NCBI GenBank assembly: GCA_030595325.1
Contig: JAUVDN010000002.1
Location: 705 to 64,704, forward strand
Reading direction: 5' to 3'
Length of the DNA: 64,000 nucleotides
Source of the DNA: Gammaproteobacteria bacterium
Lineage (GTDB): Bacteria > Pseudomonadota > Gammaproteobacteria > SZUA-229
Position 1 is the stretch's first letter. The number at the start of each line of letters is the position of its first letter. This document shows positions 4,090 through 33,750 of this stretch, one piece after another. Made by a program: the position numbers and the translations under genes. The notes below the pieces were generated by a model, which was not told where the DNA came from, did not search any database, and worked only from the letters and a program-made list of their open reading frames with translations.

Positions 4090-4098
4090 AATTTAAGT

Positions 4099-4638: not shown

Positions 4639-4649
4639 ATTTAATATTA

Positions 4650-4991: not shown

Positions 4992-5012
4992 AGTATTCTG
5001 CTTTATATCACA

Positions 5013-5041
5013 CATAAACCCCTCTCCCTATGGGAGAGGGG
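5013..5041 (-). terminator. GC-rich perfect hairpin followed by a T-run (minus strand) downstream of dapD
   Basis: cccctctccc-tat-gggagagggg at 5019-5041 gives a 10-bp perfect stem with a 3-nt loop. On the minus strand it is followed by TTTATGTG. Confidence 0.5.
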
Positions 5042-5061
5042 CGGGGTGAGGGTATGATTAT

Positions 5062-5886
5062 TTAATCAATATCACGCAGTAATTCATTTAAGCCAGTCTT
5101 ACCACGAGTTTTTTCATCTACCTGTTTAACGATTACTGCGCAGTAAAGACTGTATGTACCGTCTTTGGATGGTAGGTTACCGGATACAACAACAGAGCCG
5201 GCTGGTATGCGACCGTATGAAATTTCACCGGTCATACGATTAAATATTTTTGTGCTTTGGCCGATGTAGACACCCATTGATATAACAGAGCCTTCTTCAA
5301 CGATAACACCTTCTACAACTTCTGAGCGTGCACCGATGAAACAGTTGTCTTCAATAATAGTTGGAGAGGCCTGTAGTGGTTCTAAAACGCCACCAATGCC
5401 AACACCGCCAGAGAGGTGAACGTTTTTACCTATCTGTGCACATGAGCCGACTGTTGCCCAGGTATCGACCATAGTGCCGGTATCAACGTAAGCACCAATG
5501 TTTACGTATGACGGCATCAGTACTACGCTTGGCGCAACATAAGAACCAAAGCGAGCTGTTGCTGGTGGTACCACGCGGACACCTGATTCACGAAATTCTT
5601 TTGTGTTTAGGTCGGCAAATTTGGAATTAACTTTGTCGTAGTAATTGGTGAAGCCGCCTTTGATAAATTCGTTATCATTGATGCGGAAAGAAAGCAACAC
5701 TGCTTTTTTCAACCATTCATTGACTACCCAGTCGCCATCAATTTTTTCAGCGACACGTGCTTCACCTGAATCGAGTAAGTTTACCGCCTGTGTAACAGCA
5801 TCAGAGATGTGTGTTTCTACGTTACGTGGTGTGATATCGGCGCGGCGTTCGAATGCTTCTTCTATTATGCTTTTTAATTCAGACAT
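5062..5886 (-). CDS. dapD: 2,3,4,5-tetrahydropyridine-2,6-dicarboxylate N-succinyltransferase
   Basis: 274 aa with hexapeptide-repeat C-terminal half, a typical DapD N-terminus ([20 protein letters not shown]) and the [34 protein letters not shown] region. Confidence 0.93.
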
Positions 5887-9468: not shown

Positions 9469-9771
9469 CTATTTTGGAAAGACTTTTTTAAATGGTTTGA
9501 CGGTTACCTTATCGTAAACACCGGCAGCGACATACGGGTCAACATCTGCCCAGCTTGTGGCATCTTCTAAATTATCAAATTCAGCAACCACCAGACTGCC
9601 GCTAAAACCAGATTCACCGGGATCTTCACTGTCAATGGCAGGGTGAGGGCCAGCGAGAATTAAACGTCCTTGTTCCTGCAGAGCGGTCAGGCGTTCCAGA
9701 TGTTCAGGTCTGGCTGCCAGTCTATCTTGCAGACTGTTGGCAACGTCTTGTGCAATGATTGCATATAACAT
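9469..9771 (-). CDS. YciI-family protein
   Basis: 100 aa reading [28 protein letters not shown]...[11 protein letters not shown]...[23 protein letters not shown], the typical YciI pattern. Sits downstream of yciB. Confidence 0.8.
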
Positions 9772-10448
9772 TATGCTTTATCTCCATTGTCATCCAAATC
9801 TTTAGTGTCGTCGTCTTTCCCTTTTAAGTCATCTTCAGAGATGTGGCGTGACAGATATAACGCCTGCAGGATAACAAAACCAATAGTGAGTCCCATCAAG
9901 CCGAATAGTTTGAAATTAACCCAGGTATCCATTCTGGCTTCTGGTGTTGCACCGACGTTGTAGTAAAAAGCAACATATAAGTTTGCCGCACCACTGATAA
10001 AAAAGAAGGTGACCCAGGAGAGGTTTAACGTTGACCAGACTTTTTCAGGTAGCTCAATGTGCTCCCCCATCATACGTTGAATAATGGGTCTTTCGCCAAC
10101 GTGCATACTGCCAAGAAAAACACCGGCAAATAACCAGTTCAGTACTGTCGGTTTCCATTGAATAAATGCAGGGTTGCCAAAAAAGATGGTGATACTGCCG
10201 AGTACGGTAATCAGTACCAATGAAAAAATATGCATACGTTCAAATTTGTGTGTTTTGAACCAATGCACGCCGACCTGAATAAAGCTGGCAAGGATGGCCA
10301 TACCGGTTGCAACGATAGTGGCGGCGATAAAATCTGGCTTTGCTGGGTCAATCAGTTGACCGATAAAAGTATTATCAATTAGAAAACTTGCCTGATAATA
10401 ACTAACAAAGAATAGAATAATTGGAAAAAAATCAAATAGTAACTTCAT
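9771..10448 (-). CDS. yciB: Intracellular septation protein A (YciB/IspZ) with acidic C-terminal extension
   Basis: [19 protein letters not shown]-terminus, multiple TM segments, and a C-terminal tail [20 protein letters not shown]. Confidence 0.85.
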
Positions 10449-10522
10449 TATCTTAATGTGTTTTATTGGCTTGGTGTTAGCCTTGCTGTTTATCGAAGGC
10501 TGGCATTATACCGAACTTCGTT

Positions 10523-10658
10523 AATGAATAATGAATAATGAGCAGTGAAGAATAGAAAGAATTTTTATCGCTGGTTTTACATAATTTGTTATTGGTAAAA
10601 TATCAGTAAGTGATATTTTTGTTTTTAATTGTTAATTATTCACTATTCATTTTTCATT
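10523..10658. repeat. Second inverted pair of NTGAATA heptamer arrays
   Basis: Left arm 10523-10563 is aatgaataatgaataatgagcagtgaagaatagaaagaatt. Right arm 10634-10658 is aattattcactattcatttttcatt, whose reverse complement is aatgaaaaatgaatagtgaataatt. Confidence 0.65.
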
Positions 10659-10686: not shown

Positions 10687-11304
10687 ATGAGTCAGTATTT
10701 TGAAATCCATCCGGAAAATCCACAAAAGCGTCTAATAAAACAAGCGGTAGATATTATTCATAAGGGTGGGGTGATTGTCTATCCAACGGATTCCAGCTAC
10801 GCACTGGGCTGTCATATCGGCGATAAAAACGCGGTTGAGCGGCTACGGCGGATTCGACAGATTGATGATAAACATAACTTAACGCTGGTCTGTCGTGATC
10901 TGTCTGAAATTGCGACCTATGCAAAAATTGAAAATACGGATTATCGTCTGCTCAAGTCATTAACACCGGGTCCATATACCTTCATCCTTCCTGCGACTAG
11001 CGAGGTTCCTCGTCGTTTGATGCACCCGAAGCGCAGACATATCGGGCTACGTGTTATGAATCATCCGGTGGTGAACGAGCTGCTTGATGAACTGGGTCAG
11101 CCGTTGATTAGCTGTACTCTGGTGATGCCGGGCGAGGAATTGCCGGTTACTGAGGCCGAAGATGTCCGTTCCATGCTGGAAAAGCATGTTGACCTGATTA
11201 TCGATGGTGGTCATTGCGGTATCGAACCAACCACGGTAATTCGATTGACCGATGGTATCCCTGATATCAGGCGTCATGGTAAGGGTAAAGACCATGGGCT
11301 TTAA
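10687..11304 (+). CDS. yciO: L-threonylcarbamoyladenylate synthase-like protein, YciO subfamily
   Basis: MSQYFEIHPENPQKRLIKQAVDIIHKGGVIVYPTDSSYALGCHIGDKNAVERL is near-colinear with E. coli YciO as I recall it. Confidence 0.85.
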   Translation: MSQYFEIHPENPQKRLIKQAVDIIHKGGVIVYPTDSSYALGCHIGDKNAVERLRRIRQIDDKHNLTLVCRDLSEIATYAKIENTDYRLLKSLTPGPYTFILPATSEVPRRLMHPKRRHIGLRVMNHPVVNELLDELGQPLISCTLVMPGEELPVTEAEDVRSMLEKHVDLIIDGGHCGIEPTTVIRLTDGIPDIRRHGKGKDHGL

Positions 11305-11317
11305 ACAGCCCATGGTC

Positions 11318-11342
11318 AATGAATAATGAAAAGTGAATAATT
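11318..11342. repeat. Solo copy of the heptamer-array arm
   Basis: aatgaataatgaaaagtgaataatt, 14 nt after the yciO stop. Same terminal sequence (GTGAATAATT) as the arms at 1603-1634 and 10634-10658 (rc). Confidence 0.55.
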
Positions 11343-11530
11343 AAAAAACTCCAGCTAGAACAGTAGGTCAGCATAAGCGGTAGCGTTGCTGGCGATGGTG
11401 TGCAGCATGACGATGCCTGAAATGGCAGAGCCTTAATTCAGGCCTGCAATTTTTAACTGCTCAAACTTATTTTTAAGGTGTAAACTGCGCCCTGTAAAAT
11501 AATTAACAACAAGTTTCTTTATACTATTAG

Positions 11531-12184
11531 ATGTCTTCAATCCCTGATATTGCCTATACCATCGCTGTTTGGGCTGCTCCTATATTATTTGCTATCACTT
11601 TGCATGAAGCGGCGCATGGCTGGGTTGCCAATAAGTTAGGTGACCCCACAGCAAAAAATCTGGGGAGAATTACGATAAACCCTATAAAACATATCGATCC
11701 CATGGGGACGGTAGTTGTACCGCTATTTCTAGCGATGGTGAGCCCGTTTGTTATGGGGTGGGCAAAACCCGTTCCGGTGCAACCTCGTTACTTTAAATCA
11801 CCGCTGCTAGACATGGCGCTGGTTGCTGTAGCTGGCCCTGTATCAAATTTTGTCATGGCTTGCATCTGGGCAATGCTCGTCAAGCTGGCCTATATGTCTT
11901 TGGATCACTCACCATTGCTGACTTTCCTGACCGAGATGTGCAGGAACGGTATTATTATTAATATCGTGCTGATGGTGCTGAACTTGCTTCCGATTCCGCC
12001 TTTAGATGGTGGCCGGGTGGTCGCGGGTATCTTGCCCAAGCCTATACTGGCGCCTTACATGCAGCTGGAACGCTATGGCATGATTATTATATTGTTGTTA
12101 CTTGTTAGTGGTTTACTCGGTAAGGTATTGTGGCCATTGGTGCAGCATTTCGTCAAACTGGTTGGTTTTATTTTTGGACTTTAA
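11531..12184 (+). CDS. Site-2 protease family (M50) membrane metalloprotease
   Basis: HEAAHG (HExxH) in the first TM region, a polytopic profile, and NLLPIPPLDGG, the conserved second metal-ligand motif region. Confidence 0.8.
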   Translation: MSSIPDIAYTIAVWAAPILFAITLHEAAHGWVANKLGDPTAKNLGRITINPIKHIDPMGTVVVPLFLAMVSPFVMGWAKPVPVQPRYFKSPLLDMALVAVAGPVSNFVMACIWAMLVKLAYMSLDHSPLLTFLTEMCRNGIIINIVLMVLNLLPIPPLDGGRVVAGILPKPILAPYMQLERYGMIIILLLLVSGLLGKVLWPLVQHFVKLVGFIFGL

Positions 12185-12212
12185 AATAGATTTTAATGAG
12201 GGTTAGAGCGTC

Positions 12213-13430
12213 TTGAATACAGTAGTTACTCAACATAAACGTGTGTTATCAGGCATGCGACCGACAGGTCGTTTGCACCTGGGGCATTATCATGGTGTGC
12301 TGAAAAACTGGGTAAAGTTACAGCATGAATATGAATGTTTCTTTTTTGTAGCTGACTGGCATGCCTTAACCACGCACTACGAAGACCCGTCGATTATCGA
12401 GCAAAGCACCTGGGAAATGGTAGTCGACTGGCTGGCTGCTGGTATCAGCCCAGGCTCGGCTAAATTGTTTTTGCAGTCTAAAGTGCCTGAGCATGCTGAG
12501 TTGCATACATTATTATCGATGATCACGCCGCTGAGCTGGTTGGAGCGGGTGCCAACCTATAAAGATCAACAGGCAAAGCTCAAAGAAAAGGATCTGGCAA
12601 CGTATGGCTTTCTGGGCTACCCCTTACTGCAGAGTGCAGATATTCTGGTCTATAAAGCAGGAATGGTACCTGTCGGTGAGGATCAGGTGGCTCATGTTGA
12701 ACTAACTCGTGAAGTGGCTCGCCGGTTTAATCACCTTTATGGTCGCGAGCCGGGCTTTAAAGAAAAAGCCAAACAGGCAGCAGCCAAGATGGGCAAGAAA
12801 AATGCCCGTATGTTTTTTCAGTACAGAAAAAGTTATCAGGAACAAGGTGATGCAGAGGCGTTAAGTGTGGCAAAAGCCTTGCTCGATTCACAGCAAAATA
12901 TTTCGATAGGCGATAAAGAGCGGTTATTCGGTTATCTGGAAGGCTCGGGTAAAATAATTTTGCCGGAGCCACAGGCATTGTTAACCCCTGCATCTAAAAT
13001 GCCTGGTCTGGACGGTCAAAAAATGTCCAAGTCATATAATAATACCATCGCATTGCGCGATGATATGGACACTGTTGCCAACAAATTGCGCACTATGCCG
13101 ACGGATCCTGCAAGAGTGCGACGCACTGATCCGGGTGACCCGAAAAAATGCCCAGTGTGGAAATTTCATGAAGTTTATTCTAACGATGAAACACGTGACT
13201 GGGTGAAAAATGGCTGCACCAGTGCTTCCATTGGCTGTGTAGAGTGCAAGCAGCCGGTCATTGACGCGGTGATCGCCGAATTGAAACCCATGCAGGAACG
13301 GGCGAAAGAATATGAAGATGATATCACTACGGTAAAAGCTATCATTGAAGAAGGAAATGAAGCCGCAAGAGAGGTTGCTCGTGATACACTGGAAGACGTC
13401 AGAAAAGCGATGGGCATCGCTTACATATAA
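12213..13430 (+). CDS. trpS: Tryptophan--tRNA ligase (long form)
   Basis: The HIGH-type motif (PTGRLHLGHYHG), KMSKS and overall class I layout are present. TTG start at 12213 with GAGGG 10 nt upstream. Confidence 0.9.
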   Translation: MNTVVTQHKRVLSGMRPTGRLHLGHYHGVLKNWVKLQHEYECFFFVADWHALTTHYEDPSIIEQSTWEMVVDWLAAGISPGSAKLFLQSKVPEHAELHTLLSMITPLSWLERVPTYKDQQAKLKEKDLATYGFLGYPLLQSADILVYKAGMVPVGEDQVAHVELTREVARRFNHLYGREPGFKEKAKQAAAKMGKKNARMFFQYRKSYQEQGDAEALSVAKALLDSQQNISIGDKERLFGYLEGSGKIILPEPQALLTPASKMPGLDGQKMSKSYNNTIALRDDMDTVANKLRTMPTDPARVRRTDPGDPKKCPVWKFHEVYSNDETRDWVKNGCTSASIGCVECKQPVIDAVIAELKPMQERAKEYEDDITTVKAIIEEGNEAAREVARDTLEDVRKAMGIAYI

Positions 13431-16521: not shown

Positions 16522-17568
16522 ATGAAAACAATTAATGTTTTAGTTTTTGTATTCCTCGTTTCACTGTGTAACCCGACTGTTGTAATTGCTAAGTCTGAGG
16601 GTGAGTTAAGTGCTGGCATGGTGAATCCAGGCCATGAAGAGCACCCGTCCTGGTTCAAGGTGTCCTTCCTCGATCTATTCGAAGATGTCGAGGATGCAGC
16701 AGATAATAATAAGCGTTTGATGATCTATTATTATCAGGATGGTTGCCCATACTGTAAAAAACTTCTGCAAGATAATTTTTCTCAGCGAAAGATATCTGAT
16801 AAAGCTAAAAAATATTTTGACGTGGTATCGATAAATCTTTGGGGTGATAAAGAAGTTACTGTTGGTGATAAAACTTATACTGAAAAAGAGTTTGCTGAAG
16901 CGCTAAAGGTTCAATATACCCCGACACTATTATTTTTTGATGAAAACAAAAAAATAATCTTCCGTGCAAATGGTTATTACCCGCCTGAAAAATTTAGTGC
17001 ATTACTAGATTATACCGGTAGCAAGAAAAATGCCGAGTCAAGTTATCAGGCGTATATGGCTAAGGTGAGTCCGCAGCCTTCAACAGGACGTCTTCATGAT
17101 GATATCAATAGTGTTTTATCAGTATCTGACCTGTCCAGTGCAGGGTCAGTAAATAAAAATAAGTATACACTGGTCATGTTTGAACAGAAAAAATGTAATA
17201 CCTGTGATGAGCTTCACCTTGATATCTTAAAGCGAAGAGAGAGTGTTGATTTGTTAGCAAGGTTTAATGTGGCGGTCGTTGACATGTGGTCTAATAAATC
17301 CGTTATCACACCATCGGGTGAAAAGTTAAAGCTACAGGAATGGGCTAAAAAACTAGATATTAAATATGCACCAAGTTTAGTGTTTTTTGATGATATGGGT
17401 ACTGAGGTGTTTCGAGCAGATGCCTATCTGAAAGCTTTTCACACGCAATCTGTTATGGATTATGTATCTACCGGTACATATAAAACACAGAGTAATTTTC
17501 AGCGTTATATTGATAAACGCGCCGATCATCTGCGTGAGCAGGGAATTGAAGTCAACCTGATGGAATAA
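16522..17568 (+). CDS. Exported protein with two thioredoxin-fold modules (CPYC and CNTC)
   Basis: Signal peptide MKTINVLVFVFLVSLCNPTVVIA. Two CxxC contexts, YYYQDGCPYCKKL and FEQKKCNTCDEL, are each followed by a YTPTLLFF / YAPSLVFF thioredoxin-like strand. Confidence 0.6.
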   Translation: MKTINVLVFVFLVSLCNPTVVIAKSEGELSAGMVNPGHEEHPSWFKVSFLDLFEDVEDAADNNKRLMIYYYQDGCPYCKKLLQDNFSQRKISDKAKKYFDVVSINLWGDKEVTVGDKTYTEKEFAEALKVQYTPTLLFFDENKKIIFRANGYYPPEKFSALLDYTGSKKNAESSYQAYMAKVSPQPSTGRLHDDINSVLSVSDLSSAGSVNKNKYTLVMFEQKKCNTCDELHLDILKRRESVDLLARFNVAVVDMWSNKSVITPSGEKLKLQEWAKKLDIKYAPSLVFFDDMGTEVFRADAYLKAFHTQSVMDYVSTGTYKTQSNFQRYIDKRADHLREQGIEVNLME

Positions 17569-19170: not shown

Positions 19171-21156
19171 ATGCAATATACAAATTTAATTTGGCGAGAC
19201 GGGCAGCCATATAGTGAACAATTTGATGATATTTACTATTCATCGAAGCAGGGTGAGCGTATCTCTGGTGAAAGTGAGTTTAATCACGTCTTTTTCAAAA
19301 ATAATGGATTGCCTGACCGATGGCACGAAGACAGGGATTTTGTTATCGCTGAATTGGGTTTCGGCAGCGCTCTAAACTGTTTGTTAACCATACGTGAGTG
19401 GTTAGCTCATCTGGAGGATATAAATTCTGCTGTGGATGCTGAGGGTAGAACTGGGTGCAGAAAAACACTTCATTATATAGCCATAGAAAAGTATCCTTTT
19501 TCAGCAGAAGATATTGCGCTGTTACATGCTGATCACGCTGAGCTAAAACCTTATTGTGATGAGCTGGTTTCTAATTATCCTTTAGCTATTGAGGCAAGTC
19601 ACAGTCGACGTTTATTTAATGGCCGTGTTGTTATCCATTATAAATTTATGGATGCTTATAATGCTCTGGCTAATGAATCTCTAAACGTGGACGCCTGGTA
19701 TTTGGATGGTTTTTCACCAGCGAATAACCCTGGTTTATGGTCGACTGAATTATTTGATGAATTACCTAAAAACAGCAGATTGAATGCGACATGCAGTACT
19801 TATACTTCAGCAGGTTTTGTGAAGCGGAATTTACAGGGTGCTGGCTTTGAGGTTAAGAAGGTTAAAGGCCATGGAAAAAAGCGCGATATGATTGTGGCTA
19901 CGCTGAAACATAAGTGCGAACATAAATTAACTTATGCTGACAAGCCATGGTTTTTTCAAAAGCTTGCTGATAAAAAGCATCCTAAAAGAGTAACGATTAT
20001 CGGCGGTGGTATAGCAGGTCTGAGTATTGCCTATTCTATGATTCAGCGTGGAATATCGGTTACGATTATCGATAGCAATGGCTCAGAAGTTAAAGAGACA
20101 TCATCAAATTTAGCGGCAATTGTTTATCCGCGCTTATCTTTAGATAATGACACTGACACAGAGTTTTATATGTCAGCTTTCTGTTATGCCACTTTTGTTA
20201 TAAAAAAATTACAGGGTAAAAATAAGAAAAGATTCTGGTTTGATGGCGGCTTGTTACAATCTATCAATAGAAAAAGAATCATTTCTATATTAAATAAGTT
20301 TGAATTCAACTGTAATTACATTTCAATAAATAAAGAACCATTATCTCAGAGCGTTAAGGATGAAGATAAAGTTTTTGTGGAATATAAAACGGCAGGGGTG
20401 GTACTGCCTGAGATGCTATGTGATGCGATAAAGAAAGAATGCGGTGAGTATTTGCAGTTTATAAAAGCTGGTATTACTCAGCTTGAACGTGATGGGGACG
20501 TATGGCGATGTTTAGAAGGCACGAAAGTAATTAATGAAGAAAAAATACTCATTATTGCAAATGGTGCAAAATTAAAATCTCTTGAATGTTCAGCAATGTT
20601 TCCTGTTGAATCTGTTCGTGGACAAATGCTGGAAGTGTCGGCGACACCTGTGTCACAGAAAATATCTAAAGTTATTAATAGCGGTATTTATGTGACACCA
20701 GTCATCAATCAGAAACACGTTATCGGTGGAACTTATTCGCGTGATAACAAGAATGAAAATGTAGAAGAGAGGGACAATTACACGCTGCTTGAATCAGCAA
20801 ACGATGTTTATCCTGGAGCATTTGAAATGGCTGATTACGTTCAGTCGTGGGTAGGGTTTCGTGCCATGGCAAAAGATAGAGTTCCTATAGTAGGTGCAAT
20901 GCCGGATATAGCATCTTTTAATAACGAATATGCTGATATTAATATTGGTGATATTAAAAAAAATTACCAGCCTGCAAAAAATCTAAAGGGTCTGCATGTA
21001 TCCATGGCGCATGGATCACGAGGTTTTACCAGTTGTTTTCTGGCGGCTGAAATAATATCTTCGCAGATAATAGGGGGTCCTTCACCGGTGCGTAAAAGGG
21101 TATTGGATTATTTAAACCCTTCAAGGTTTGTTGTGAATGATCTTAAGCGAAGGTGA
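19171..21156 (+). CDS. mnmC: Bifunctional tRNA mnm5s2U34 methyltransferase / FAD-dependent cmnm5s2U34 oxidoreductase
   Basis: N-terminus LIWRDGQPYSEQFDDIYYS, methyltransferase half, DAWYLDGFSPANNP motif, then the FAD GxGxxG motif (IIGGGIAGLS). Confidence 0.9.
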   Translation: MQYTNLIWRDGQPYSEQFDDIYYSSKQGERISGESEFNHVFFKNNGLPDRWHEDRDFVIAELGFGSALNCLLTIREWLAHLEDINSAVDAEGRTGCRKTLHYIAIEKYPFSAEDIALLHADHAELKPYCDELVSNYPLAIEASHSRRLFNGRVVIHYKFMDAYNALANESLNVDAWYLDGFSPANNPGLWSTELFDELPKNSRLNATCSTYTSAGFVKRNLQGAGFEVKKVKGHGKKRDMIVATLKHKCEHKLTYADKPWFFQKLADKKHPKRVTIIGGGIAGLSIAYSMIQRGISVTIIDSNGSEVKETSSNLAAIVYPRLSLDNDTDTEFYMSAFCYATFVIKKLQGKNKKRFWFDGGLLQSINRKRIISILNKFEFNCNYISINKEPLSQSVKDEDKVFVEYKTAGVVLPEMLCDAIKKECGEYLQFIKAGITQLERDGDVWRCLEGTKVINEEKILIIANGAKLKSLECSAMFPVESVRGQMLEVSATPVSQKISKVINSGIYVTPVINQKHVIGGTYSRDNKNENVEERDNYTLLESANDVYPGAFEMADYVQSWVGFRAMAKDRVPIVGAMPDIASFNNEYADINIGDIKKNYQPAKNLKGLHVSMAHGSRGFTSCFLAAEIISSQIIGGPSPVRKRVLDYLNPSRFVVNDLKRR

Positions 21157-24100
21157 TTTTTCACCTTCATTTAAAGATAGTGCTTCTTTTATAGGTTTTG
21201 GTTGTTCGATACCATAGCCTTGCGCATAATCAACCTTTAGTTCCCGTAACTTTTTAACGATCTGATCATTTTCCACATATTCGGCAATCGTTTCAATGCC
21301 CATGATGTGGCCAACCTCATTGATGGCTGCGACCATTGCATGGTCTACGTTGTTGTTGACCATGTCAGAGACAAAGCTACCGTCTATCTTTAGGTAATCA
21401 ACGGGTAGACTCTTCAGGTATTGAAAAGATGATAGCCCGCTGCCAAAATCATCTAGCGCAAATTTGAAGCCGTAACTTTTTAGTTTCTTAATAAGAGTTT
21501 TTGCTTTTTGTAAGTTTTTAATCGCGGCAGTTTCAGTCACTTCAAAGCATATGTGCTTTGTGTTTATCTCAAACTCTTCAGCGGTTTCTTTGATGTAATT
21601 AACGATGTTTTTATCATCAATAGTATTGCCTGATAAGTTAATGGAATAGTGTGTTATTTTTTCATCCAAGTCAGAATATTTGTGTATAAATGAAAAAGTT
21701 TTATATATTACATTTCTATCTACAAGGTGCATCAGCTTGTAACGCTCAGCTGCTGGAATAAATGCATTTGGTGGGATGATATTGTTATTCTCATCTAGCA
21801 GGCGAACCAGAATCTCCATATGTTGCTTCATGGGGTCTTTGTCTTTTAGTGGAACGATGGGTTGCGCGTAAAGCTTTAAACGATCATTATCGATTGCTTC
21901 TGAGATACGCGTGGCCCAGTAAGTTTCTTCCTGTCGCCTTATCAGTTCACTATCTTCTTCTTCATAGACATAGATCTGGTTTTCACCATGATCCTTAGCA
22001 GTGTAACAGGCAAGGTCTGCTTTTCTTATTGCGTCGGCAGCATCGGCGGTGTTTTTATCAAGTGGGTTGATGCCGATGCAAACGCCCAGGCTGTAATCAC
22101 AGTCATCCCATCTGAAAACCATATCTGAGATAGTGTTTGTAATCTTATTGGTTATTTTTAAAGTAGCTTCGTGTGAACAATGTTTAAGTATTAAGCCAAA
22201 TTCATCACCACCAAGACGGCTGAGTACATCGTCACCACGGATACACGATTGTATCAATGACGTTATCTGTATCAAACATTGGTCACCAGCGATGTGTCCA
22301 GCGGTATCATTGATCAGTTTAAATCTGTCCAGATCAAGATAACAGAGTACATGATGCTTAGTGTTGTTTATTGCATCATAAACATGATCAGAAAGTTCTA
22401 TATCAAATGCATCTCTATTTAGCAGATTGGTTAAGGGATCATGCGCAGCCTGATGTTTGATGGTGTTTTCAAGTTGACGACGTTGTGTTTCATCATGAAA
22501 TACAATTACTACACCTTCTGCTTTACCGGAAGTATTTAGAATAGGTGAGATAGAGCTCTCGATGTCTTTATCGTTGCCATTCTTGCTTACCAAACTTAGT
22601 ATGCTTTTGTTAATGCTTATGCCGTCATATAAGCAGGACTTAACAACATCGTGAATGGGTTCACCTGTGTCAAGATCTTCAATCCTAAATACTTTTTGTA
22701 CCGCCAGGTTTTTAGCATCATTCAGTGACCATGCCGTCAGTTCTTCAGCAACTTGATTCATGTACTCGATTTTACCGTTAACATTGGTTGTGATGACGGC
22801 GTCACCAATTGAATGCAAGGTAACTTCTGCACGTTCACGTTCAGATTTCATATCGCTGACTAATTGCATGTTGATGATGGCCATCTGTACACTTTGACCA
22901 AACTGTGACATTAACTGTTCGTCGACTTTATCAAACTCATCATGATTTCTGAAAACAGCAATTGCACCGTATGGTTTTTCTTTGAGAGGCACTGGCGTTG
23001 TCAGAACGGATTTGATATTAAATTGCTTCAATAGCTCTTTCTGAGCACGGGGGGTAGTTGTTACATCATTAATTAACAGGTTTTTGTTATTTAATATTGT
23101 CCAGGAGCAGAGGTCACCGTCTTCAACATCAAGTGTTACATTTTCAAGCCTTTCTGACTGTAGCCCACACACTGCATGGAAATGAAAAGTTTGCTTGTCT
23201 TCATGGATGACTGGAAAGGCAGCAAGTTGTGATTTTGTGATTTCTTGTGCCGCCCGGCATATGTTTTTGAAGAATACATCTTCTTCATATCCTTCAGTTA
23301 TTAATCGCGCTATCCAGTTATCGATTAACGCAAGGCCTTGTTGGTAGCGGTTGCTGTCATTGACTTCAATTTGGTATTCAAGTTCGATAAGGGCACGAGA
23401 TGTAGCAATGGTTAAAATGTTTTCGGCAAGATTTGTATCTTCAATCGGCCTGTCACTTGCAATTGCGATCATGCCAATTACATTGTCTTTGTTGTTAATA
23501 AGGCTGACGCCGATATAACTTACTGCATTATTTAATAGCTTTTCTGTGCAATCCGGAAAATAATTTGAAAAGTCACGGTTGTGTACAAGCCTGCCACTTT
23601 TTATAACTTCTTCACAGGGAGTGTCAGCTAACGAATAAGTCATGTTATTGCTGAACATTCCATGATCCAACAGGCCGATTATTTCTGCGCTTGCCCCAGA
23701 AGAGCTGATTTTATTAATGTATGCATATTCGACATCTAATGCGGTACATAAGGTATTGAGCAGAGTGATCAATCGACCTTCGTTGTCGCCACTATTGCTT
23801 TTTTTATCGATACTGACTAATTGGTATAGGGCTTTTTCTGTTTTAGCACGCAGGTTGATTTCATCGTTTAGTTTAGTATTACTTTCAGATAATTCATCCT
23901 GACTTTTTCGCAGAGTTATAAAGATATATAAGATATAAAATATTAAATAGACAGTGCATAGAAACAGTAATATATTAAAAATTTGAGTATTATTGTTTTG
24001 CTTCTTTTTTAGTTCAGAAACATTGTTTTTTAATATAATGATTTGCTTCTCAGTGTTTAATGAGTTAAATCGCTTCAGCGTCTCGTCTATCTCAGGAAGC

Positions 24101-24702
24101 TTCTCGATAATCATCAAGCTGTGGTTGATCAGAGCATTGGTATCTGTATCTGGTTTGTTATTCAATCTGTCGATGAGTGGATAGATCTTATTGGCGATGT
24201 TGTTCTTTGGGTATTCATTATATTCTAAAAGCAGGGTAACAAGTTCTGCTGTAGTTCGAAGCTGTTGCTTGGATTGTGATTTTGGTTTAACAGAATAGAG
24301 TTCTGTGCTCACGTTGAAAATATAAAACAATGAGTTCTGAAGGATGGAATGATGAGTCTTAAAATCTTCAACTAAAATTGACTGGTGAGTAATTGCATTT
24401 TCTATGCTGCTGATTACATCGATACCAATTTCTTCTGCTGCAACGTGGCTCTCATTTAGGTAGGCGACGTTACTGTTTAGGTCGTTAAGTGTTTTGTTGA
24501 GTGTGTCGTATTGCTGAATCTGATTGCTTCTGTAGCGTAATAGATCACGGTGAAGTTGTACCTGTAAATCTTGTATCTCTTCGATCGTTGACAGTGTCTT
24601 GTCAAGAGGCAGGTCACTAAATATGCTCTTATAGAATAGAAAGGTGATAACTGCAAACAGCAGTACTATCCCTACCCAGTAATTTACATTTCCCTTGTTC
24701 AT
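21121..24702 (-). CDS. Membrane sensor protein: helical extracytoplasmic domain - GAF x2 - PAS - GGDEF - EAL
   Basis: TM at about residues 8-28 and 240-262, bracketing a helical region. PAS (HSIGDAVITTNVNGKIEYMN), GGDEF (RLGGDEFGLIL), and EAL-domain motifs (QPIV, EILVR, FEVTE, DDFGSG, KIDGSF, QGY). Confidence 0.9.
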   Translation of the reverse strand: MNKGNVNYWVGIVLLFAVITFLFYKSIFSDLPLDKTLSTIEEIQDLQVQLHRDLLRYRSNQIQQYDTLNKTLNDLNSNVAYLNESHVAAEEIGIDVISSIENAITHQSILVEDFKTHHSILQNSLFYIFNVSTELYSVKPKSQSKQQLRTTAELVTLLLEYNEYPKNNIANKIYPLIDRLNNKPDTDTNALINHSLMIIEKLPEIDETLKRFNSLNTEKQIIILKNNVSELKKKQNNNTQIFNILLFLCTVYLIFYILYIFITLRKSQDELSESNTKLNDEINLRAKTEKALYQLVSIDKKSNSGDNEGRLITLLNTLCTALDVEYAYINKISSSGASAEIIGLLDHGMFSNNMTYSLADTPCEEVIKSGRLVHNRDFSNYFPDCTEKLLNNAVSYIGVSLINNKDNVIGMIAIASDRPIEDTNLAENILTIATSRALIELEYQIEVNDSNRYQQGLALIDNWIARLITEGYEEDVFFKNICRAAQEITKSQLAAFPVIHEDKQTFHFHAVCGLQSERLENVTLDVEDGDLCSWTILNNKNLLINDVTTTPRAQKELLKQFNIKSVLTTPVPLKEKPYGAIAVFRNHDEFDKVDEQLMSQFGQSVQMAIINMQLVSDMKSERERAEVTLHSIGDAVITTNVNGKIEYMNQVAEELTAWSLNDAKNLAVQKVFRIEDLDTGEPIHDVVKSCLYDGISINKSILSLVSKNGNDKDIESSISPILNTSGKAEGVVIVFHDETQRRQLENTIKHQAAHDPLTNLLNRDAFDIELSDHVYDAINNTKHHVLCYLDLDRFKLINDTAGHIAGDQCLIQITSLIQSCIRGDDVLSRLGGDEFGLILKHCSHEATLKITNKITNTISDMVFRWDDCDYSLGVCIGINPLDKNTADAADAIRKADLACYTAKDHGENQIYVYEEEDSELIRRQEETYWATRISEAIDNDRLKLYAQPIVPLKDKDPMKQHMEILVRLLDENNNIIPPNAFIPAAERYKLMHLVDRNVIYKTFSFIHKYSDLDEKITHYSINLSGNTIDDKNIVNYIKETAEEFEINTKHICFEVTETAAIKNLQKAKTLIKKLKSYGFKFALDDFGSGLSSFQYLKSLPVDYLKIDGSFVSDMVNNNVDHAMVAAINEVGHIMGIETIAEYVENDQIVKKLRELKVDYAQGYGIEQPKPIKEALSLNEGEKSPSLKIIHNKP

Positions 24703-25742
24703 GATTCCGCGTCCAGCGGTATGTTCTTGTATTCACCAGTTAAGGTGTTAAGAAAAGCTTTAATATACAGTACCTCGTCAGTAGACAGTGATCGTCCTAG
24801 CTGAGTTTTTCCCATGATGCTGATGGCTTCTTCGATAGTCTCTGCGCTGCCATCGTGTAGATAGGGTGCAGTCACTGCGATATTTCTTAATGATGGTACC
24901 TTGAATACATAGGCATCCACCAAGCGGTCTGTGATGTTTATTCTTCCGTAGTCTGGTTTTTTAATGTCGCCACGTTCAGCGATATAGTTGTAGAAAACGC
25001 CAAACTTCTGATACAGGTTACCACCGATATTGATTCCCTGATGACAGGAGATACAGCCGAGTTCTTTAAAAATTTTATAACCTTTAATCTCGTCATCATT
25101 TAGTATGTCATCTTCACTTCTGAGGTGCTGGTCAAATTTTGAATTAGGTGTAATAAGTGTTTTTTCGAACTCGACGAGCGAGTTGATGATATTTTCTTTT
25201 GTAACGCCATCTTTATAAATAGCGTTAAAGTCATTTGAGAGTTCCTGATCACTACTGATCGCAGTAACGGCATTATCCCAGTTATTATCAAATTCATGAG
25301 TGCTTGTCATTGCCATGTTGATTTGATCTTGCAGCGTCTTAGCAGCACCATCCCAGTTTTGCCTGAAGTTATATTGTGCATTAAAGATGCTGGGTGTGTT
25401 TATAATATGTTGTTCGCCTGATATTGATATCCCGATAGGCAGATTGTCATCGCCACCGGATGTTAGCTGGTGACAACTGATGCATGCGATTTGGTCGTTC
25501 TTAGACAAACGAGTTTCAATAAACAGCTTTTCGCCTAGTTCAGCTTTACCCTTGTCGACATTGATTTTAAGTGGAATAGGGAAGATTGGTTCTTGGCGTA
25601 AGTAGTTTTCACTCTCTGCGAGCACAGCGGTGCTCATTGTACATAGTAGGGATATTGCTATGTATGATGTGTGTGTGGAAAAATTGAACTGTGGCAGGTG
25701 TTTAATTGATAACATTTCGAGCAAAATCGCTGTAAAATCCAT
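24699..25742 (-). CDS. Di-haem cytochrome c peroxidase (CCP/MauG family)
   Basis: Two CxxCH sites (CISCHQL, CISCHQG), the PSLRN motif and a signal-like N-terminus. Its stop overlaps the downstream start as ATGA. Confidence 0.85.
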   Translation of the reverse strand: MDFTAILLEMLSIKHLPQFNFSTHTSYIAISLLCTMSTAVLAESENYLRQEPIFPIPLKINVDKGKAELGEKLFIETRLSKNDQIACISCHQLTSGGDDNLPIGISISGEQHIINTPSIFNAQYNFRQNWDGAAKTLQDQINMAMTSTHEFDNNWDNAVTAISSDQELSNDFNAIYKDGVTKENIINSLVEFEKTLITPNSKFDQHLRSEDDILNDDEIKGYKIFKELGCISCHQGINIGGNLYQKFGVFYNYIAERGDIKKPDYGRINITDRLVDAYVFKVPSLRNIAVTAPYLHDGSAETIEEAISIMGKTQLGRSLSTDEVLYIKAFLNTLTGEYKNIPLDAES

Positions 25743-25786
25743 GATTGTTAAAGTTATAAAACATCACCTTGAATTTTAGTCAATAT

Positions 25787-26554
25787 ATGAGAAAAAGCAT
25801 GTCTATTACACTGGTCAAAAGCCTATTTTTGATATTTTTTTTCATTGCTGGAGTGAGTTCAGTATATTCAGCCTGTGATGACACCGCAGCGCCTGAAGTT
25901 AACTGGGCTAACTGTGATTTCACTGGCAAAGACTTTAAAAACAATGACTTAACTGGCGCTGTTTTAACCGGTGCTACTCTGGATGGTGCTGATTTTTCTG
26001 GTGCGATACTGGAAAATGTTGATTTAAACTTTGCCAGCCTGACAAATGCCCGTTTTGATGGCGCTAGAATGGCGAATATCCGCCTGGTTGGCGTTGATGC
26101 GCAGGGTGCAAGTTTCAAAAATGCCGTGATGGTGAATAGCCGGTTGAGTCGATCCAGCTTAAAAAAATCTGATTTCAGCGGTGTGAAAGCTGAAAAATCA
26201 AATTTTTATCAAGCAGACCTCGAGTCAGCGATTTTTGCTGGTGCCTTGCTCAGTAAAGTAAACTTTGAAGGGGCTAATCTTAGTTCGGCTGACTTTTCCC
26301 ACTCGGTATTGAACGAGTCGGTATTGCGAAACTCACGTTTACGTAATACCAATATGAAATATGCGGAATTGAGTAAAGTGATTTTTGACAAGTCAGATTG
26401 CCGTGGTGCAGATTTCACTAAGGCTGATTTGAGTAAAGCCTCTTTCAGAGAGGCCGATATTGATGAAAGCGTCTTTGACGAGGCTGTTTTGAAAGACACT
26501 ATCTGGTCTGACTATAGACGGTGTCGTGCGAATTCTATCGGAACATGTAAATGA
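25787..26554 (+). CDS. Exported pentapeptide-repeat protein
   Basis: Signal peptide (MRKSMSITLVKSLFLIFFFIAGVSSVYS) followed by continuous A(D/N)LxG-type pentapeptide repeats. ATG at 25787 is preferred to the TTG at 25769. Confidence 0.8.
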   Translation: MRKSMSITLVKSLFLIFFFIAGVSSVYSACDDTAAPEVNWANCDFTGKDFKNNDLTGAVLTGATLDGADFSGAILENVDLNFASLTNARFDGARMANIRLVGVDAQGASFKNAVMVNSRLSRSSLKKSDFSGVKAEKSNFYQADLESAIFAGALLSKVNFEGANLSSADFSHSVLNESVLRNSRLRNTNMKYAELSKVIFDKSDCRGADFTKADLSKASFREADIDESVFDEAVLKDTIWSDYRRCRANSIGTCK

Positions 26555-26819: not shown

Positions 26820-27254
26820 ATGTACAGCATACCCGATCACCTTGTAAAACCATTAAAATATGCAGCAATACTTGCAGGAATTGTTGTTGTGATAATTTCC
26901 GTAAATGAAAGCTATAAATACTTATATTATAAGCTGCCGCCAACATTAGTGAATGTCAGTGTAAAGTACTTACCAGCGTCGCCTTGTAGAAAAGATACGC
27001 CGATGTACATGCTGATTATTAATGATAGTTATAGATCTGTCGTTAGCACTTCTTTTATTTTGACGGTAAAGGTTGATGAGGCTAGCGAAAACCTTATCCC
27101 GTTGTTGGCAGGCAATTATTCCTCCGATGTGCTTATTAAGCCCGGAGAGTCTCATGAAGGGTGTTGGTCTTATCCGAAGTTATACAATAATAAACATGCA
27201 CCAGAATCGCTAATTTACAGCGTTAAACGTCAGTCTATAAAGTTTGCTGATTAG
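26820..27254 (+). CDS. Hypothetical membrane-anchored protein (144 aa)
   Basis: A single N-terminal hydrophobic segment (YAAILAGIVVVIISV). No motif recognised. Confidence 0.45.
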   Translation: MYSIPDHLVKPLKYAAILAGIVVVIISVNESYKYLYYKLPPTLVNVSVKYLPASPCRKDTPMYMLIINDSYRSVVSTSFILTVKVDEASENLIPLLAGNYSSDVLIKPGESHEGCWSYPKLYNNKHAPESLIYSVKRQSIKFAD

Positions 27255-30219: not shown

Positions 30220-33200
30220 ATGCGTTTAAGCACGATTAAGCTCTCTGGATTTAAATCTTTCGTCGATCCAACCACAATCAATTTCCCCAGTAATTTAACA
30301 GGTATTGTTGGCCCTAATGGCTGTGGAAAATCCAATACCATTGATGCAGTGCGCTGGGTCATGGGTGAATCATCGGCTAAACATCTGCGTGGCGCTTCCA
30401 TGGATGACGTCATTTTTAATGGTTCATCATCCAGAAAACCTATTGATACTGCCTCCGTTGAGCTTATCTTTGACAACAGTGAAGGGAAGTTAGGTGGTCA
30501 ATACGCTAACTATGCTGAGATTTCAGTTAAGCGTCAGGTTACGCGCGAAGGCGCTTCGAAATACAGTTTAAATGGCACACGCTGTCGTCGTCGTGATGTT
30601 GCAGATTTATTTTTGGGCACCGGTTTAGGTCCGCGCAGTTATGCCATTATCGAGCAGGGCATGATTTCAAGATTGATTGAAGCTAAACCTGAAGAATTAC
30701 GTAGTTTTCTTGAAGAAGCAGCGGGTATATCCAAATACAAAGAACGTCGCCGTGAAACCGAAACACGGATCAGGCATACCCGTGAGAATCTTGATCGGTT
30801 GTCGGATTTACGTGAAGAGATAGAAAAACAACTTGCAAGATTGCAGCGCCAGAGCCGTAGTGCCGAGCGTTATAAAGAATTCAAACAGGATGAGCGTGAG
30901 CTAAAAGCCGAGCATCTAACATTACATTGGCGTGAACTTAAAGTTGAACTTGATGACCGTGATAAAAATATACAGAGTACAGAAACTTCTTTAGAGCAGG
31001 TTATTGCTGAGCAGCGTTCGACCGAATCGGATATTGAATCGAATAGGGAACAAGGCACCAAATCCAATGAAGTATTGAATAACGTGCAGGCTGAATATTA
31101 CCGCTTGGGCGCCGATATATCAGCAAAAGAACAGAACATTAAACATCAGCAGGATCTGTTGCAGCGTCAACAGACTGATCTACAGCAGATTGAAACAGCA
31201 CTGGCGGATGCTAGTCAGGCTATCCAGTCAGATAAACAGGCAATTGAAGAGTTTCAAAAAAATCTGTTGCAAGAAGAGCCGCAGCTAATCGTTCTGAAAA
31301 CACAGGAAGACGAGAGCACCGCATCATTCCAGCAATCTGAACAGGCGATGCAAACCTGGCAGTTACAGTGGGATGAAAGTAATCAGCGCTATTCTGCAGA
31401 AAGTCAGAAAGCGCAGATCGAACGTTCACGTATGGAACAATTGGAGCGCCACGTCGATCAGTTGAAACAACGTTTACAGAAGATTGATGTTGAGAAGCAG
31501 GCGCTACGTGGTGAGAATCTTGAAGAACAGATTTCGGATCTAAACGTTCTACTGAAAAAATCCACAGAAGAAAAAGAAACCAATGAACAGCAATTAACGG
31601 ATGCTATTTCTCAGATAAGACAAACCCGCGAAAAAATCTCAACGGTTGAGCAGCAGTCGGCCGATGTACGTCGTAATGTTCACCAGTTTCAAGGCAGCCT
31701 GTCTTCGATGGAAGCCTTGCAGGAAGCCGCACTGGGTAAAACAGATAAAGCCGCACAGCAGTGGCTGGAAAAAAGCGGTATCAATAAAAATGCACGTTTT
31801 GCAGAACAGCTGGATGTAAAGGACGGTTGGGAGCTTGCTGTTGAAACGGTATTGGGTGATACATTAGAAGCGGTTTGTGTTGATGATATCGATCAATTTT
31901 CGTCTGCATTAAGCAGTCTGGAAAACAGCAATGTTTCATTGATAGAAAAAGGTCAGTCCGCTGCGGCTACGAGCACGGTAGCGGGACTGTTGCTTGAGCA
32001 AGTGTCGTCTGCTGTTAATCTGAGCCAGTTCCTGCACGGAATACGCTGTACTGAAACATTGGACGAGGCGTTAAAAATGCGCCACTCGTTAGCCAGTGAT
32101 GAAAGTATTATTACAAAAGATGGAATCTGGTTGGGTTCTAACTGGTTGCGTATCAGTCGTGACACAGATGCCAGTACTGGTGTTCTAGCGCGTGAAAACA
32201 GTATTCGTGAATGCCAGCAGCAGTTATCTGAACTGGAAGCAAAAGCTGAAAAGTTTAATCTTGAGTTAACGGAATTACGTGGCAATTTGCAGAGCAAAGA
32301 GCAGCAGCGTGAAGAAATACAAACACAGCTAAACACTATTCATTCACGTTTGAATGAGATCAAAGCGCAAATTACAGCGCGTGAATCTCGCCATGAGCAC
32401 ATAACCAGCCGCGGTAAAGATCTTGATGCTGAGCTTGATGAGACGCAAAAATTAATCAGCAACGACGAAGCTGATGTCGATGCGGCAACAAAAAGTCGAA
32501 ATGCAGCCTTGGAAAATGCTGAAACAATGGAAGCGGACAGAAAAGTTCTGCAAGGTCAGCGTGATGAGTTACAGCAAGAATTACAGCAGCACAGAAGCAA
32601 TTTGCAGCAGCATCGTGAGCAGGCGCATCAGCTGGCTATACGTGTTGAAGGTTTAAAGACACGCTTAAGCGGTTTGCAGCATAACATTCAACGCATGGAA
32701 CAAGCGCAGACGGCACAGTTGCAGCGCAAGCAAGAACTGGAATCGCTGTTATCACAATCTACACAGCCAACAGAACAATTAGAAGCTGAATTAAAAGTGT
32801 TGTTGGGTCAGCGATTAACTACTGAAGAAGGGCTGGCAGAGGCTCGTCGTAAAGTAGAAGGCATAACGCATACACTTCGAAAACTTGAGCAGCAGCGTAG
32901 TGAGTACGAGCAAAAATCACAATTGGTACGTTCTCAGTTAGAGAAGCTTCGTCTTGATAGTCAGGAAACCCGTGTACGCAGCAAGACTACGCTGGAGCAA
33001 TTGGATGAAACTGGTTTTGAATTAGACGTAGTACTGGCAACACTGCGCGAATTAGAGTCGGATGATAATCTGGCGACGAGTAAGCAGTGGGAGTCTCGAC
33101 TGGCTGAAGTGGCACAGAAAATATCACGTCTGGGACCAATCAATCTGGCCGCTATCGATGAATATAAAGAGCAGTTACAACGCAAAGAATATCTGGATGA

Positions 33201-33750
33201 TCAGGATAAAGACGTCAATGCGGCGTTAGCAATCTTAGAAGAAGCTATCGCTAAAATTGATAAAGAGACACGTACTCGATTTAAAGATACATTTGATCAT
33301 GTGAATTCGCGTATCAAGGATATGTTCCCTAAATTATTCGGTGGCGGCATCGCTTATCTTGAGATGACGGGCGATGATTTGTTGAGCACGGGTGTTACAA
33401 TCATGGCAAGACCACCGGGTAAGCGAATTTCAAATATTCACCTGATGTCGGGTGGTGAGAAAGCATTAACCGCAGTCGCGTTAGTCTTTGCGATTTTTGA
33501 GTTGAATCCTGCGCCATTTTGTATGCTTGATGAAGTTGATGCACCGCTCGATGAAGCCAATGTTGGCAGATTCTGTCAATTGGTTAAAGAAATGTCATCA
33601 CGTGTGCAGTTTATTTTTATCACGCATAATAAGACGACGATGGAGATTTCAGAACATCTAAGTGGTGTAACAATGCGTGAGTCAGGCGTCTCTCGTCTGG
33701 TATCGGTTGATGTTGCTGAAGCAGCAACGATGGCGGGTGTAGGAGCGTAG
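30220..33750 (+). CDS. smc: Chromosome partition protein SMC
   Basis: N-terminal Walker A (GPNGCGKSN), long coiled coils, a hinge, the C-terminal signature LSGGEK and Walker B (FCMLDEVDAPLD). Confidence 0.95.
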   Translation: MRLSTIKLSGFKSFVDPTTINFPSNLTGIVGPNGCGKSNTIDAVRWVMGESSAKHLRGASMDDVIFNGSSSRKPIDTASVELIFDNSEGKLGGQYANYAEISVKRQVTREGASKYSLNGTRCRRRDVADLFLGTGLGPRSYAIIEQGMISRLIEAKPEELRSFLEEAAGISKYKERRRETETRIRHTRENLDRLSDLREEIEKQLARLQRQSRSAERYKEFKQDERELKAEHLTLHWRELKVELDDRDKNIQSTETSLEQVIAEQRSTESDIESNREQGTKSNEVLNNVQAEYYRLGADISAKEQNIKHQQDLLQRQQTDLQQIETALADASQAIQSDKQAIEEFQKNLLQEEPQLIVLKTQEDESTASFQQSEQAMQTWQLQWDESNQRYSAESQKAQIERSRMEQLERHVDQLKQRLQKIDVEKQALRGENLEEQISDLNVLLKKSTEEKETNEQQLTDAISQIRQTREKISTVEQQSADVRRNVHQFQGSLSSMEALQEAALGKTDKAAQQWLEKSGINKNARFAEQLDVKDGWELAVETVLGDTLEAVCVDDIDQFSSALSSLENSNVSLIEKGQSAAATSTVAGLLLEQVSSAVNLSQFLHGIRCTETLDEALKMRHSLASDESIITKDGIWLGSNWLRISRDTDASTGVLARENSIRECQQQLSELEAKAEKFNLELTELRGNLQSKEQQREEIQTQLNTIHSRLNEIKAQITARESRHEHITSRGKDLDAELDETQKLISNDEADVDAATKSRNAALENAETMEADRKVLQGQRDELQQELQQHRSNLQQHREQAHQLAIRVEGLKTRLSGLQHNIQRMEQAQTAQLQRKQELESLLSQSTQPTEQLEAELKVLLGQRLTTEEGLAEARRKVEGITHTLRKLEQQRSEYEQKSQLVRSQLEKLRLDSQETRVRSKTTLEQLDETGFELDVVLATLRELESDDNLATSKQWESRLAEVAQKISRLGPINLAAIDEYKEQLQRKEYLDDQDKDVNAALAILEEAIAKIDKETRTRFKDTFDHVNSRIKDMFPKLFGGGIAYLEMTGDDLLSTGVTIMARPPGKRISNIHLMSGGEKALTAVALVFAIFELNPAPFCMLDEVDAPLDEANVGRFCQLVKEMSSRVQFIFITHNKTTMEISEHLSGVTMRESGVSRLVSVDVAEAATMAGVGA

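Follow-up and report, generated by a model that had tools for sequence, protein, structure and literature searches.

Organisation of the locus

The stretch of DNA analysed here, hereafter called the window, comprises 64,000 nucleotides of contig JAUVDN010000002.1 from a gammaproteobacterium of the SZUA-229 lineage. On its minus strand it carries a gene for a di-haem protein of the cytochrome c peroxidase (CCP) family, followed immediately by the gene for a large membrane-bound sensor with GGDEF and EAL domains, i.e. a predicted enzyme of cyclic di-GMP (c-di-GMP) turnover. A gene for an exported pentapeptide-repeat (PPR) protein is transcribed divergently. The arrangement is as follows.

24699..25742, minus strand: di-haem CCP gene, 347 aa (list of open reading frames (ORFs) and translation)
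21121..24702, minus strand: sensor gene, 1193 aa (ORF list and translation)
24699..24702, minus strand: ATGA stop/start overlap of the CCP TGA and the sensor ATG (read directly from the sequence)
25769..26554, plus strand: pentapeptide-repeat ORF, 261 aa, likely start ATG 25787 (PF00805, E 4.8e-44)
25743..25786, no strand assigned: divergent intergenic region between the CCP and PPR genes, presumed to bear promoters

Across the junction of the CCP and sensor genes the minus strand reads gaatcATGAacaag, and the CCP stop codon TGA shares bases with the sensor ATG; the overlap at 24699-24702 reported in a preliminary description of this DNA is thus borne out by direct reading. Judged by this arrangement, translation of the sensor is predicted to be coupled to that of the CCP. 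An ATGA overlap alone is frequent in operons; what goes beyond chance is the recurrence of a stop/start overlap across distant loci, to which we return below. On the other side of the CCP gene, 44 bp separate the first ATG of the PPR gene (25787) from the longest possible CCP start (25742). Because most homologues of the window CCP have 338 aa, its true start is probably Met10 (25715), which widens the gap to 71 bp. The divergent, exported PPR protein of the preliminary description therefore stands, and its distance of 44 bp applies to the annotated CCP start only. A consensus scan of the intergenic region gave promoter-like sites at the level found in shuffled sequences, and we therefore claim no promoter.

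The CCP matches Pfam CCP_MauG (PF03150) with E 4.5e-45 and 154.4 bits, against a cut-off of 25.6. Its predicted signal peptide ends after AVLA, with ESEN following, and its two CISCH (CxxCH) haem motifs, at residues 87 and 230, are both invariant in 119 members of the window's clade. The sensor was dissected using Pfam, NCBIfam and a motif and hydropathy scan, which gave the order first transmembrane segment (TM1), DAHL, second transmembrane segment (TM2), GAF, GAF, PAS, GGDEF, EAL.

24610..24693, minus strand: TM1, aa 4-31 (Kyte-Doolittle window; helix 3-28 in the AlphaFold2 model)
23989..24609, minus strand: periplasmic DAHL domain, aa 32-238, all-helical
23905..23988, minus strand: TM2, aa 239-266 (hydropathy scan and AlphaFold2 model)
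22873..23805, minus strand: cytoplasmic GAF-like and GAF region, about aa 300-610, in two stretches, the best about 476-609 (Pfam GAF, GAF_2)
22474..22827, minus strand: PAS domain, aa 626-743 (Pfam PAS, PAS_4, PAS_9)
21976..22449, minus strand: GGDEF domain, aa 752-909, with intact GGDEF and RxxD I-site (PF00990, E 1.5e-38)
21199..21909, minus strand: EAL domain, aa 932-1168, with all catalytic motifs, its signature being the EIL variant (PF00563, E 2.1e-61)

The preliminary description of the sensor, with a helical domain of about 210 residues between membrane segments, two GAF-like regions, a PAS domain, an intact GGDEF motif and a complete EAL set, agrees with these data throughout; about 207 residues lie between the two membrane segments. 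By motif scan, the GGDEF motif is found at 831, within the segment RGDDVLSRLGGDEF that starts at 822, and is accompanied by the I-site RGDD, while the EAL domain contains EIL(VR) at 963, EVTE at 1054, DDFGSG at 1084, KID at 1105 and AQGY at 1160. By motif and domain criteria, the sensor would hence be a bifunctional GGDEF-EAL enzyme that may both synthesize and degrade c-di-GMP. Its orthologues, 64-78% identical, mostly keep these motifs; a strict pattern search missed at least one of them in 6 of 14.

The periplasmic domain belongs to the Pfam family DAHL (PF19443; residues 36-242, E 3.4e-28, 99.3 bits against a cut-off of 38), and residues 10-271 of the sensor match residues 8-269 of NF010411, the 'VirA-like sensor kinase' (E 8e-30). 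The DAHL family includes VirA itself. Apart from VirA, we know of no DAHL or 'VirA-like' sensor for which a signal has been established. The AlphaFold2 model of the DAHL region is all-helical, with a predicted local distance difference test (pLDDT) value of 87, and resembles helical sensor domains among solved structures, with the following match scores.

PcaY, a four-helix bundle: 15.8
LytS-N, from the XylFII-LytSN complex: 15.7
McpS (HBM): 14.7
PilJ: 14.2
TorS: 13.3
NarQ: 12.7
QseE, solved also with QseG: 12.0

Judged by the titles of their PDB entries, LytS-N and QseE have been solved in complex with a periplasmic partner (XylFII and QseG, respectively).

Linkage of CCP and DAHL genes

Within the lineage of the window, scanning genomes with the CCP gave 18 loci, every one of them in uncultured Gammaproteobacteria or Thiotrichaceae-like metagenome-assembled genomes (MAGs). 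The arrangement of PPR, CCP and sensor genes is the same in these loci wherever the contig is long enough, and two further, more distant metagenome loci also keep the three genes together, giving 20 loci in all. We set these loci aside as independent evidence for a link between CCP and sensor: since the whole neighbourhood is syntenic in the lineage (QueF, FGGY kinase, CysZ, PPR, CCP, sensor, MnmC, SDR, UPF0014), they show an inherited gene order and not a specific link. The PPR protein, with an N-terminal hydrophobic signal segment and five cysteines, recurs as the divergent neighbour of the CCP, at 46-68% identity, in those orthologous loci that have room for it. Likewise, the 3' end of the sensor gene overlaps that of the convergent mnmC gene (19171-21156, plus strand) by 36 nt (21121-21156), and orthologous loci have a similar convergent overlap, for example L001, where the sensor gene ends at 11610 and the MnmC gene at 11584.

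We thus turned to DAHL proteins far from this lineage. HMMER searches with the DAHL domain identified 374 family members, and identity to the window's domain falls sharply, to 27% or less, beyond the window's clade. Family representatives include PAS, GAF and hybrid kinases, and the distant DAHL proteins that we scanned are histidine kinases or hybrid kinases. A peptide pattern was derived from nine aligned distant DAHL domains, which are 22-27% identical to the window's, and a scan of metagenome contigs with this pattern returned 72 loci. In 62 of them more than 400 nt lie upstream of the DAHL match, and these were analysed by tblastn with the window CCP and at the ORF level. In 59 of the 62, the gene immediately upstream of the DAHL gene, and on the same strand as it, encodes a CCP, and these CCPs are 37-46% identical to that of the window. 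The preliminary description had named a lack of conserved linkage in other genomes as refuting its proposal; such linkage was looked for and is strong.

The junction between the two genes is tight as well. An NTGA overlap occurs in 15 of 18 loci of the window's clade and in 27 of 53 distant loci, and nearly all remaining junctions are short overlaps or gaps of at most 30 nt. The CCP and sensor genes of the window accordingly share the arrangement by which we define a CCP-to-DAHL module, namely a CCP gene immediately upstream, on the same strand, with an overlap or a gap of at most 30 nt. Clustering of the 51 full-length CCPs from the distant loci gave 41 groups at 90% identity and 20 at 70%, so the linkage does not stem from one genome sampled repeatedly. 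Linked sensors in the sampled loci are kinases of 283-1089 aa, one of them with GAF and receiver domains. The CCP is thus found next to DAHL whether the output is a histidine kinase or a GGDEF-EAL enzyme, and this independence of the output links it with the input domain rather than with a target of regulation. The PPR gene behaves differently: none was found in the 72 distant DAHL loci, and we reject it as part of the module and regard it as a lineage-specific neighbour.

Named genomes carry the module, too. By tblastn against plasmids, DAHL kinases were found in Rhizobium, Bradyrhizobium, Sinorhizobium, Skermanella and Indioceanicola. On plasmid pRlX5 of Rhizobium johnstonii, the operon U8P77_RS35620-35630 is annotated as a response regulator, then a cytochrome c peroxidase and then a VirA-like sensor kinase. 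A plasmid of Bradyrhizobium barranii repeats this order of three genes, its regulator and CCP genes being separated by a gap. The chromosome of B. septentrionale and four further contigs each have genes for an OmpR-type regulator, for a CCP and for a DAHL kinase. The DAHL gene overlaps the gene upstream of it by 4 nt in all five except L102, where 216 nt lie between the two. In all seven further contexts from Rhizobium, Bradyrhizobium and metagenomes, the CCP gene lies directly upstream of the DAHL kinase gene.

Several observations at individual loci should be mentioned. Between response regulator and CCP, two loci contain small ORFs of 117-118 aa (L100, 3492-3845; L101, 3646-4002) that match no Pfam family; being mutually dissimilar and devoid of CxxCH, they were discarded as a shared component. 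Locus L080 has, besides its upstream CCP gene, a second CCP-family gene (9635-10615), 29% identical to the window CCP and about 1 kb downstream of the DAHL match. Word-indexed protein searches with DAHL yielded mostly gene fragments. One candidate CCP-DAHL fusion (P0302) was rejected as most likely a frameshift in a split gene. In L096, L099 and L103, all from ENA contigs of the ERZ250395xx series, genes are split or fused by apparent frameshifts, one example being a 488-aa ORF in which the C-terminus of a CCP runs on into DAHL; any fusion, or any DAHL protein that seems to stand alone, is unreliable when it comes from these contigs.

Active-site changes in linked CCPs and invariant residues of DAHL

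Among solved structures, the nearest relative of the window CCP is the CCP of N. europaea (1iqc, E 9e-70), followed by 9qdt and by S. oneidensis CcpA. The second of these, a 'probable cytochrome c peroxidase' of 417 aa, has 120 extra N-terminal residues; it resembles the window CCP in having no distal His and in having a Trp where the window CCP has Trp155, and differs from it in retaining FWDGR and the GP loops. We compared alignment columns of the window clade (n=119), the distant, soil clade (n=51) and five solved bacterial CCPs (bCCPs). Both linked clades keep the two CxxCH motifs, the Trp between the haems, the Met ligand of the electron-transfer haem and the Asn, Thr and Pro of the Ca site. 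In the window clade, Met310 (119/119), Trp130, Asn115 and Pro293 are invariant and Thr291 is present in 118 of 119; all of them align with the solved bCCPs.

The peroxidatic site is a different matter. The distal His of the IGH loop, present in four of the five solved bCCPs, is lost; its column holds Ile, Ser, Met or Thr in the window clade and Ala in 37 of 51 soil-clade members. FWDGR has become NWDG(S/A), with a residue other than Arg after WDG, and neither GP motif is left in the active-site loops. New conserved residues appear, namely Trp155, His112 and an extended CxxCHQG motif. The catalytic Glu is present in the window CCP and in 78 of 119 members of its clade; in the soil clade it is replaced by Leu, Val or Ile. 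As far as sequence comparison can tell, the DAHL-linked CCPs constitute a distinct subfamily with a changed peroxidatic site, and for many of them the divergent active site makes ordinary peroxidase chemistry less likely. A neighbour-joining tree places the linked CCPs apart from the five solved bCCPs in 40 of 40 bootstraps, and the two linked clades have a mean identity of 0.44 to one another, against 0.39 for either of them to the solved enzymes.

The DAHL domain has conserved features of its own. E112, K115, N123, S124, H194 and P203 are all present in the window sensor, are invariant in 47 of 47 aligned sequences and are kept in 48-58 of 60 CCP-linked pairs. CCP-linked VirA-like kinases of rhizobia keep the same six residues together with D206. 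Tyr65 and Tyr127 are also invariant. Two DAHL proteins that have no CCP neighbour offer a comparison. VirA of the Ti plasmid, a DAHL member encoded beside virB and with no adjoining CCP, has R58D, D66R, E112A, K115G, N123D, Y127R, H194E and D206N, and the DAHL protein of L085 has Y65D, E112D, Y127H, H194Y and P203D. E112, Tyr127 and H194 are hence replaced in both, K115 and N123 in VirA only, a pattern of loss that fits DAHL invariants serving a putative CCP-dependent function. The L085 protein (3614-5461) combines DAHL with GAF/PAS and GGDEF and has no CCP upstream; a separate GGDEF-EAL gene follows downstream (10998-12266). As this locus shows, DAHL also came to be joined to c-di-GMP outputs outside the lineage of the window, here without a CCP.

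A putative haem co-sensor and its alternatives

With these data in mind, we propose that CCP and sensor form a two-protein periplasmic sensing unit in which the CCP acts as haem co-sensor of the DAHL domain, and we put the probability of this reading at roughly 0.6. It is, in essence, the periplasmic co-sensor suggested in the preliminary description, which gains support from the deep linkage, from its independence of the output, from the changed peroxidatic site and from the correlated loss of DAHL residues. Its strongest support, in our view, is that the CCP stays with the input domain when the output changes. Mechanistically, the exported di-haem CCP would be made in fixed proportion to the sensor by way of the ATGA overlap and would bind the helical DAHL domain as its signal-perceiving subunit. 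The signal may be a change at the CCP haems: a shift in their redox state, exposure to peroxide, or binding of a small ligand to the five-coordinate peroxidatic haem. Movement of CCP loops could then alter the DAHL bundle, the change would pass through TM2 to the GAF-GAF-PAS region, and there it would shift the balance between synthesis by GGDEF and breakdown by EAL and hence the c-di-GMP level, in one direction or the other. In bCCPs, large redox- and Ca-linked rearrangements of loops take place around the peroxidatic haem. The loops remodelled in the linked CCPs are these same mobile loops, and it is therefore plausible that an event at the haem is converted into a conformational signal. In most relatives the same CCP-DAHL input would be wired to a histidine kinase and an OmpR-type regulator, which the window's lineage would have exchanged for c-di-GMP.

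A number of points weigh against the co-sensor. The window CCP is 40-45% identical to real peroxidases and keeps Gln140 and Glu150, and so may be an active enzyme. One DAHL-linked CCP, that of L091 (about 572-1510), retains the canonical FWDGRA and GGPIQNPLEM loops; judged by these motifs it may represent an intermediate stage, or else an ordinary peroxidase that was recruited recently. The tree, whose root is not fixed, does no more than suggest that the linked CCPs are monophyletic. The metagenome scan used a single peptide pattern and sampled mainly one DAHL subfamily, with about ten individual contexts checked for the others, and the comparison of residue loss rests on two CCP-less DAHL proteins. 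Finally, gene adjacency can also stem from co-regulation.

This last point leads to the alternative that survives best, although we consider it unlikely: the CCP would be an ordinary periplasmic detoxifier of peroxide, merely co-expressed with a DAHL domain that senses alone. The closeness of the window CCP to active bCCPs (1iqc), with Gln140, Glu150, Trp130, Met310 and the Ca site kept, is in line with this, as are the canonical catalytic loops of L091 and the adjacent OmpR-type regulator of the kinase versions, which could auto-induce the operon. Yet the link persists in the c-di-GMP version, whose GGDEF-EAL sensor has no transcriptional output, and the CCP thus cannot be simply the sensor's regulated target. 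Moreover, a 4-nt overlap with the gene for a low-abundance membrane sensor would be more in keeping with a partner made in fixed stoichiometry than with an enzyme induced in bulk; the soil clade has exchanged the catalytic Glu for Leu, Val or Ile, the distal His and the active-site loops are gone, and the DAHL invariants are lost in both CCP-less DAHL proteins examined.

Less probable again is a role of the CCP as a maturation enzyme that oxidatively modifies a DAHL residue, either once, for competence, or in a peroxide-dependent manner as the sensing event itself. The CCP/MauG superfamily offers established examples of enzymes whose target is the product of a neighbouring gene: MauG acts on pre-methylamine dehydrogenase and MbnH on MbnP. 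The best NCBIfam match of the window CCP is indeed the MbnH family (TIGR04039, E 7e-46), and the invariant Tyr65, Tyr127 and His194 of DAHL would be possible targets. However, the MbnH match is well below its cut-off (156.7 against 362.85), as is that to MauG (TIGR03791, 107.2 against 443.85), and against PDB sequences the CCP is far nearer to bCCPs (about 1e-70) than to the 'di-heme enzyme' 6e1c (1e-22) or to MauG (1e-13). In addition, its second haem keeps the Met ligand of bCCPs (Met310) and not the Tyr of MauG, which in that enzyme stabilises bis-Fe(IV).

A haem-ligand switch in trans is a speculative variant to which we assign a low probability. Since the linked CCPs have lost the distal His while H194 of DAHL is invariant, and replaced in VirA and L085, H194 might itself bind the peroxidatic haem of those CCPs; peroxide, another ligand or a redox change would displace it, move the bundle and switch the output. 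CCP and DAHL sensor would then make up a widespread, uncharacterised class of haem-based signalling systems of the periplasm, most of them with three components, namely regulator, CCP and kinase. That the adjacency is inherited synteny devoid of functional meaning, as the conserved neighbourhood of the 20 lineage loci would allow, is highly improbable and is contradicted by the distant loci, in which the link recurs with DAHL domains only 22-27% identical to the window's and with differing flanks in the loci examined gene by gene, on plasmids and chromosomes of Alphaproteobacteria among them.

Sensing through an accessory protein is already known, and the co-sensor proposed here has counterparts of different kinds. 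TorS works through TorT and VirA through ChvE; these pairs, together with LytS/XylFII, QseE/QseG and LuxQ/LuxP, are sensor kinases that perceive a signal by way of a periplasmic partner, and the unit proposed here would operate along these lines. In contrast to those partners, which are solute-binding proteins or lipoproteins, the candidate partner in the window is a di-haem c-type cytochrome; its gene appears translationally coupled to that of the sensor, and the output is GGDEF-EAL instead of a kinase. VirA proper, of the Ti plasmid, is a histidine kinase with a receiver, is encoded in the vir regulon and has ChvE as its periplasmic partner, and the window sensor, with its GAF-PAS-GGDEF-EAL output, is not VirA.

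Compared with bCCPs of solved structure (1iqc; 3o5c, S. oneidensis CcpA; 1nml, M. hydrocarbonoclasticus; 3hq7, G. sulfurreducens), the window CCP has the same fold and length and shares the two CxxCH motifs, the inter-haem Trp, the Met ligand, the Asn, Thr and Pro of the Ca site and the catalytic Gln and Glu, whereas the linked CCPs lack the distal His that is a ligand in reductive activation, FWDGR and the GP loops, and are encoded in a sensor operon. MauG and MbnH are likewise di-haem proteins of the CCP superfamily encoded beside a specific partner, but similarity of the window CCP to them is much weaker, its ligand is Met instead of Tyr, and its putative partner is a membrane sensor domain. 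Among haem sensors, the closest in logic are the pairs in which a separate haem protein controls an adjacent GGDEF-EAL enzyme or kinase, i.e. H-NOX with HaCE or HnoK and NosP with NahK. These contain b-type haem and differ in fold and compartment; the window CCP, by contrast, is a periplasmic c-type di-haem protein that would act, if at all, on an extracytoplasmic domain. Full-text searching found no paper on a DAHL-CCP link, with many subscription papers and the text of the Pfam entry outside its reach; literature matches to 'DAHL' were an alignment-benchmark paper or author names only.

The window locus would accordingly be the c-di-GMP-output version of a CCP-DAHL pairing, and the DAHL or 'VirA-like' family gains a concrete, testable input: a dedicated di-haem CCP-like partner, co-produced with the sensor. 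If this holds, a c-type cytochrome joins the periplasmic accessory sensors, and many 'cytochrome c peroxidase' annotations would have to be re-read as signalling subunits and not as detoxifiers. The oxidant or redox status of the periplasm would then connect with two-component regulation in bacteria that live in soil or with plants, and with c-di-GMP, hence with the choice between biofilm and motility, in the marine gammaproteobacterial lineage of the window. As culturable Rhizobium and Bradyrhizobium carry the CCP-DAHL module, experiments look feasible.

Three observations concern the surroundings of the locus. A 144-aa ORF at 26820-27254 (plus strand) matches no Pfam or NCBIfam family and has a 57%-identical copy in one orthologous locus only (L003). 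A thioredoxin-like protein with two Thioredoxin_2 stretches is encoded at 16522-17568 (plus strand). On the other flank, at 30220-33750 (plus strand), lies the gene for SMC, which is 86-91% identical in related MAGs, compared with 57-68% for the CCP.

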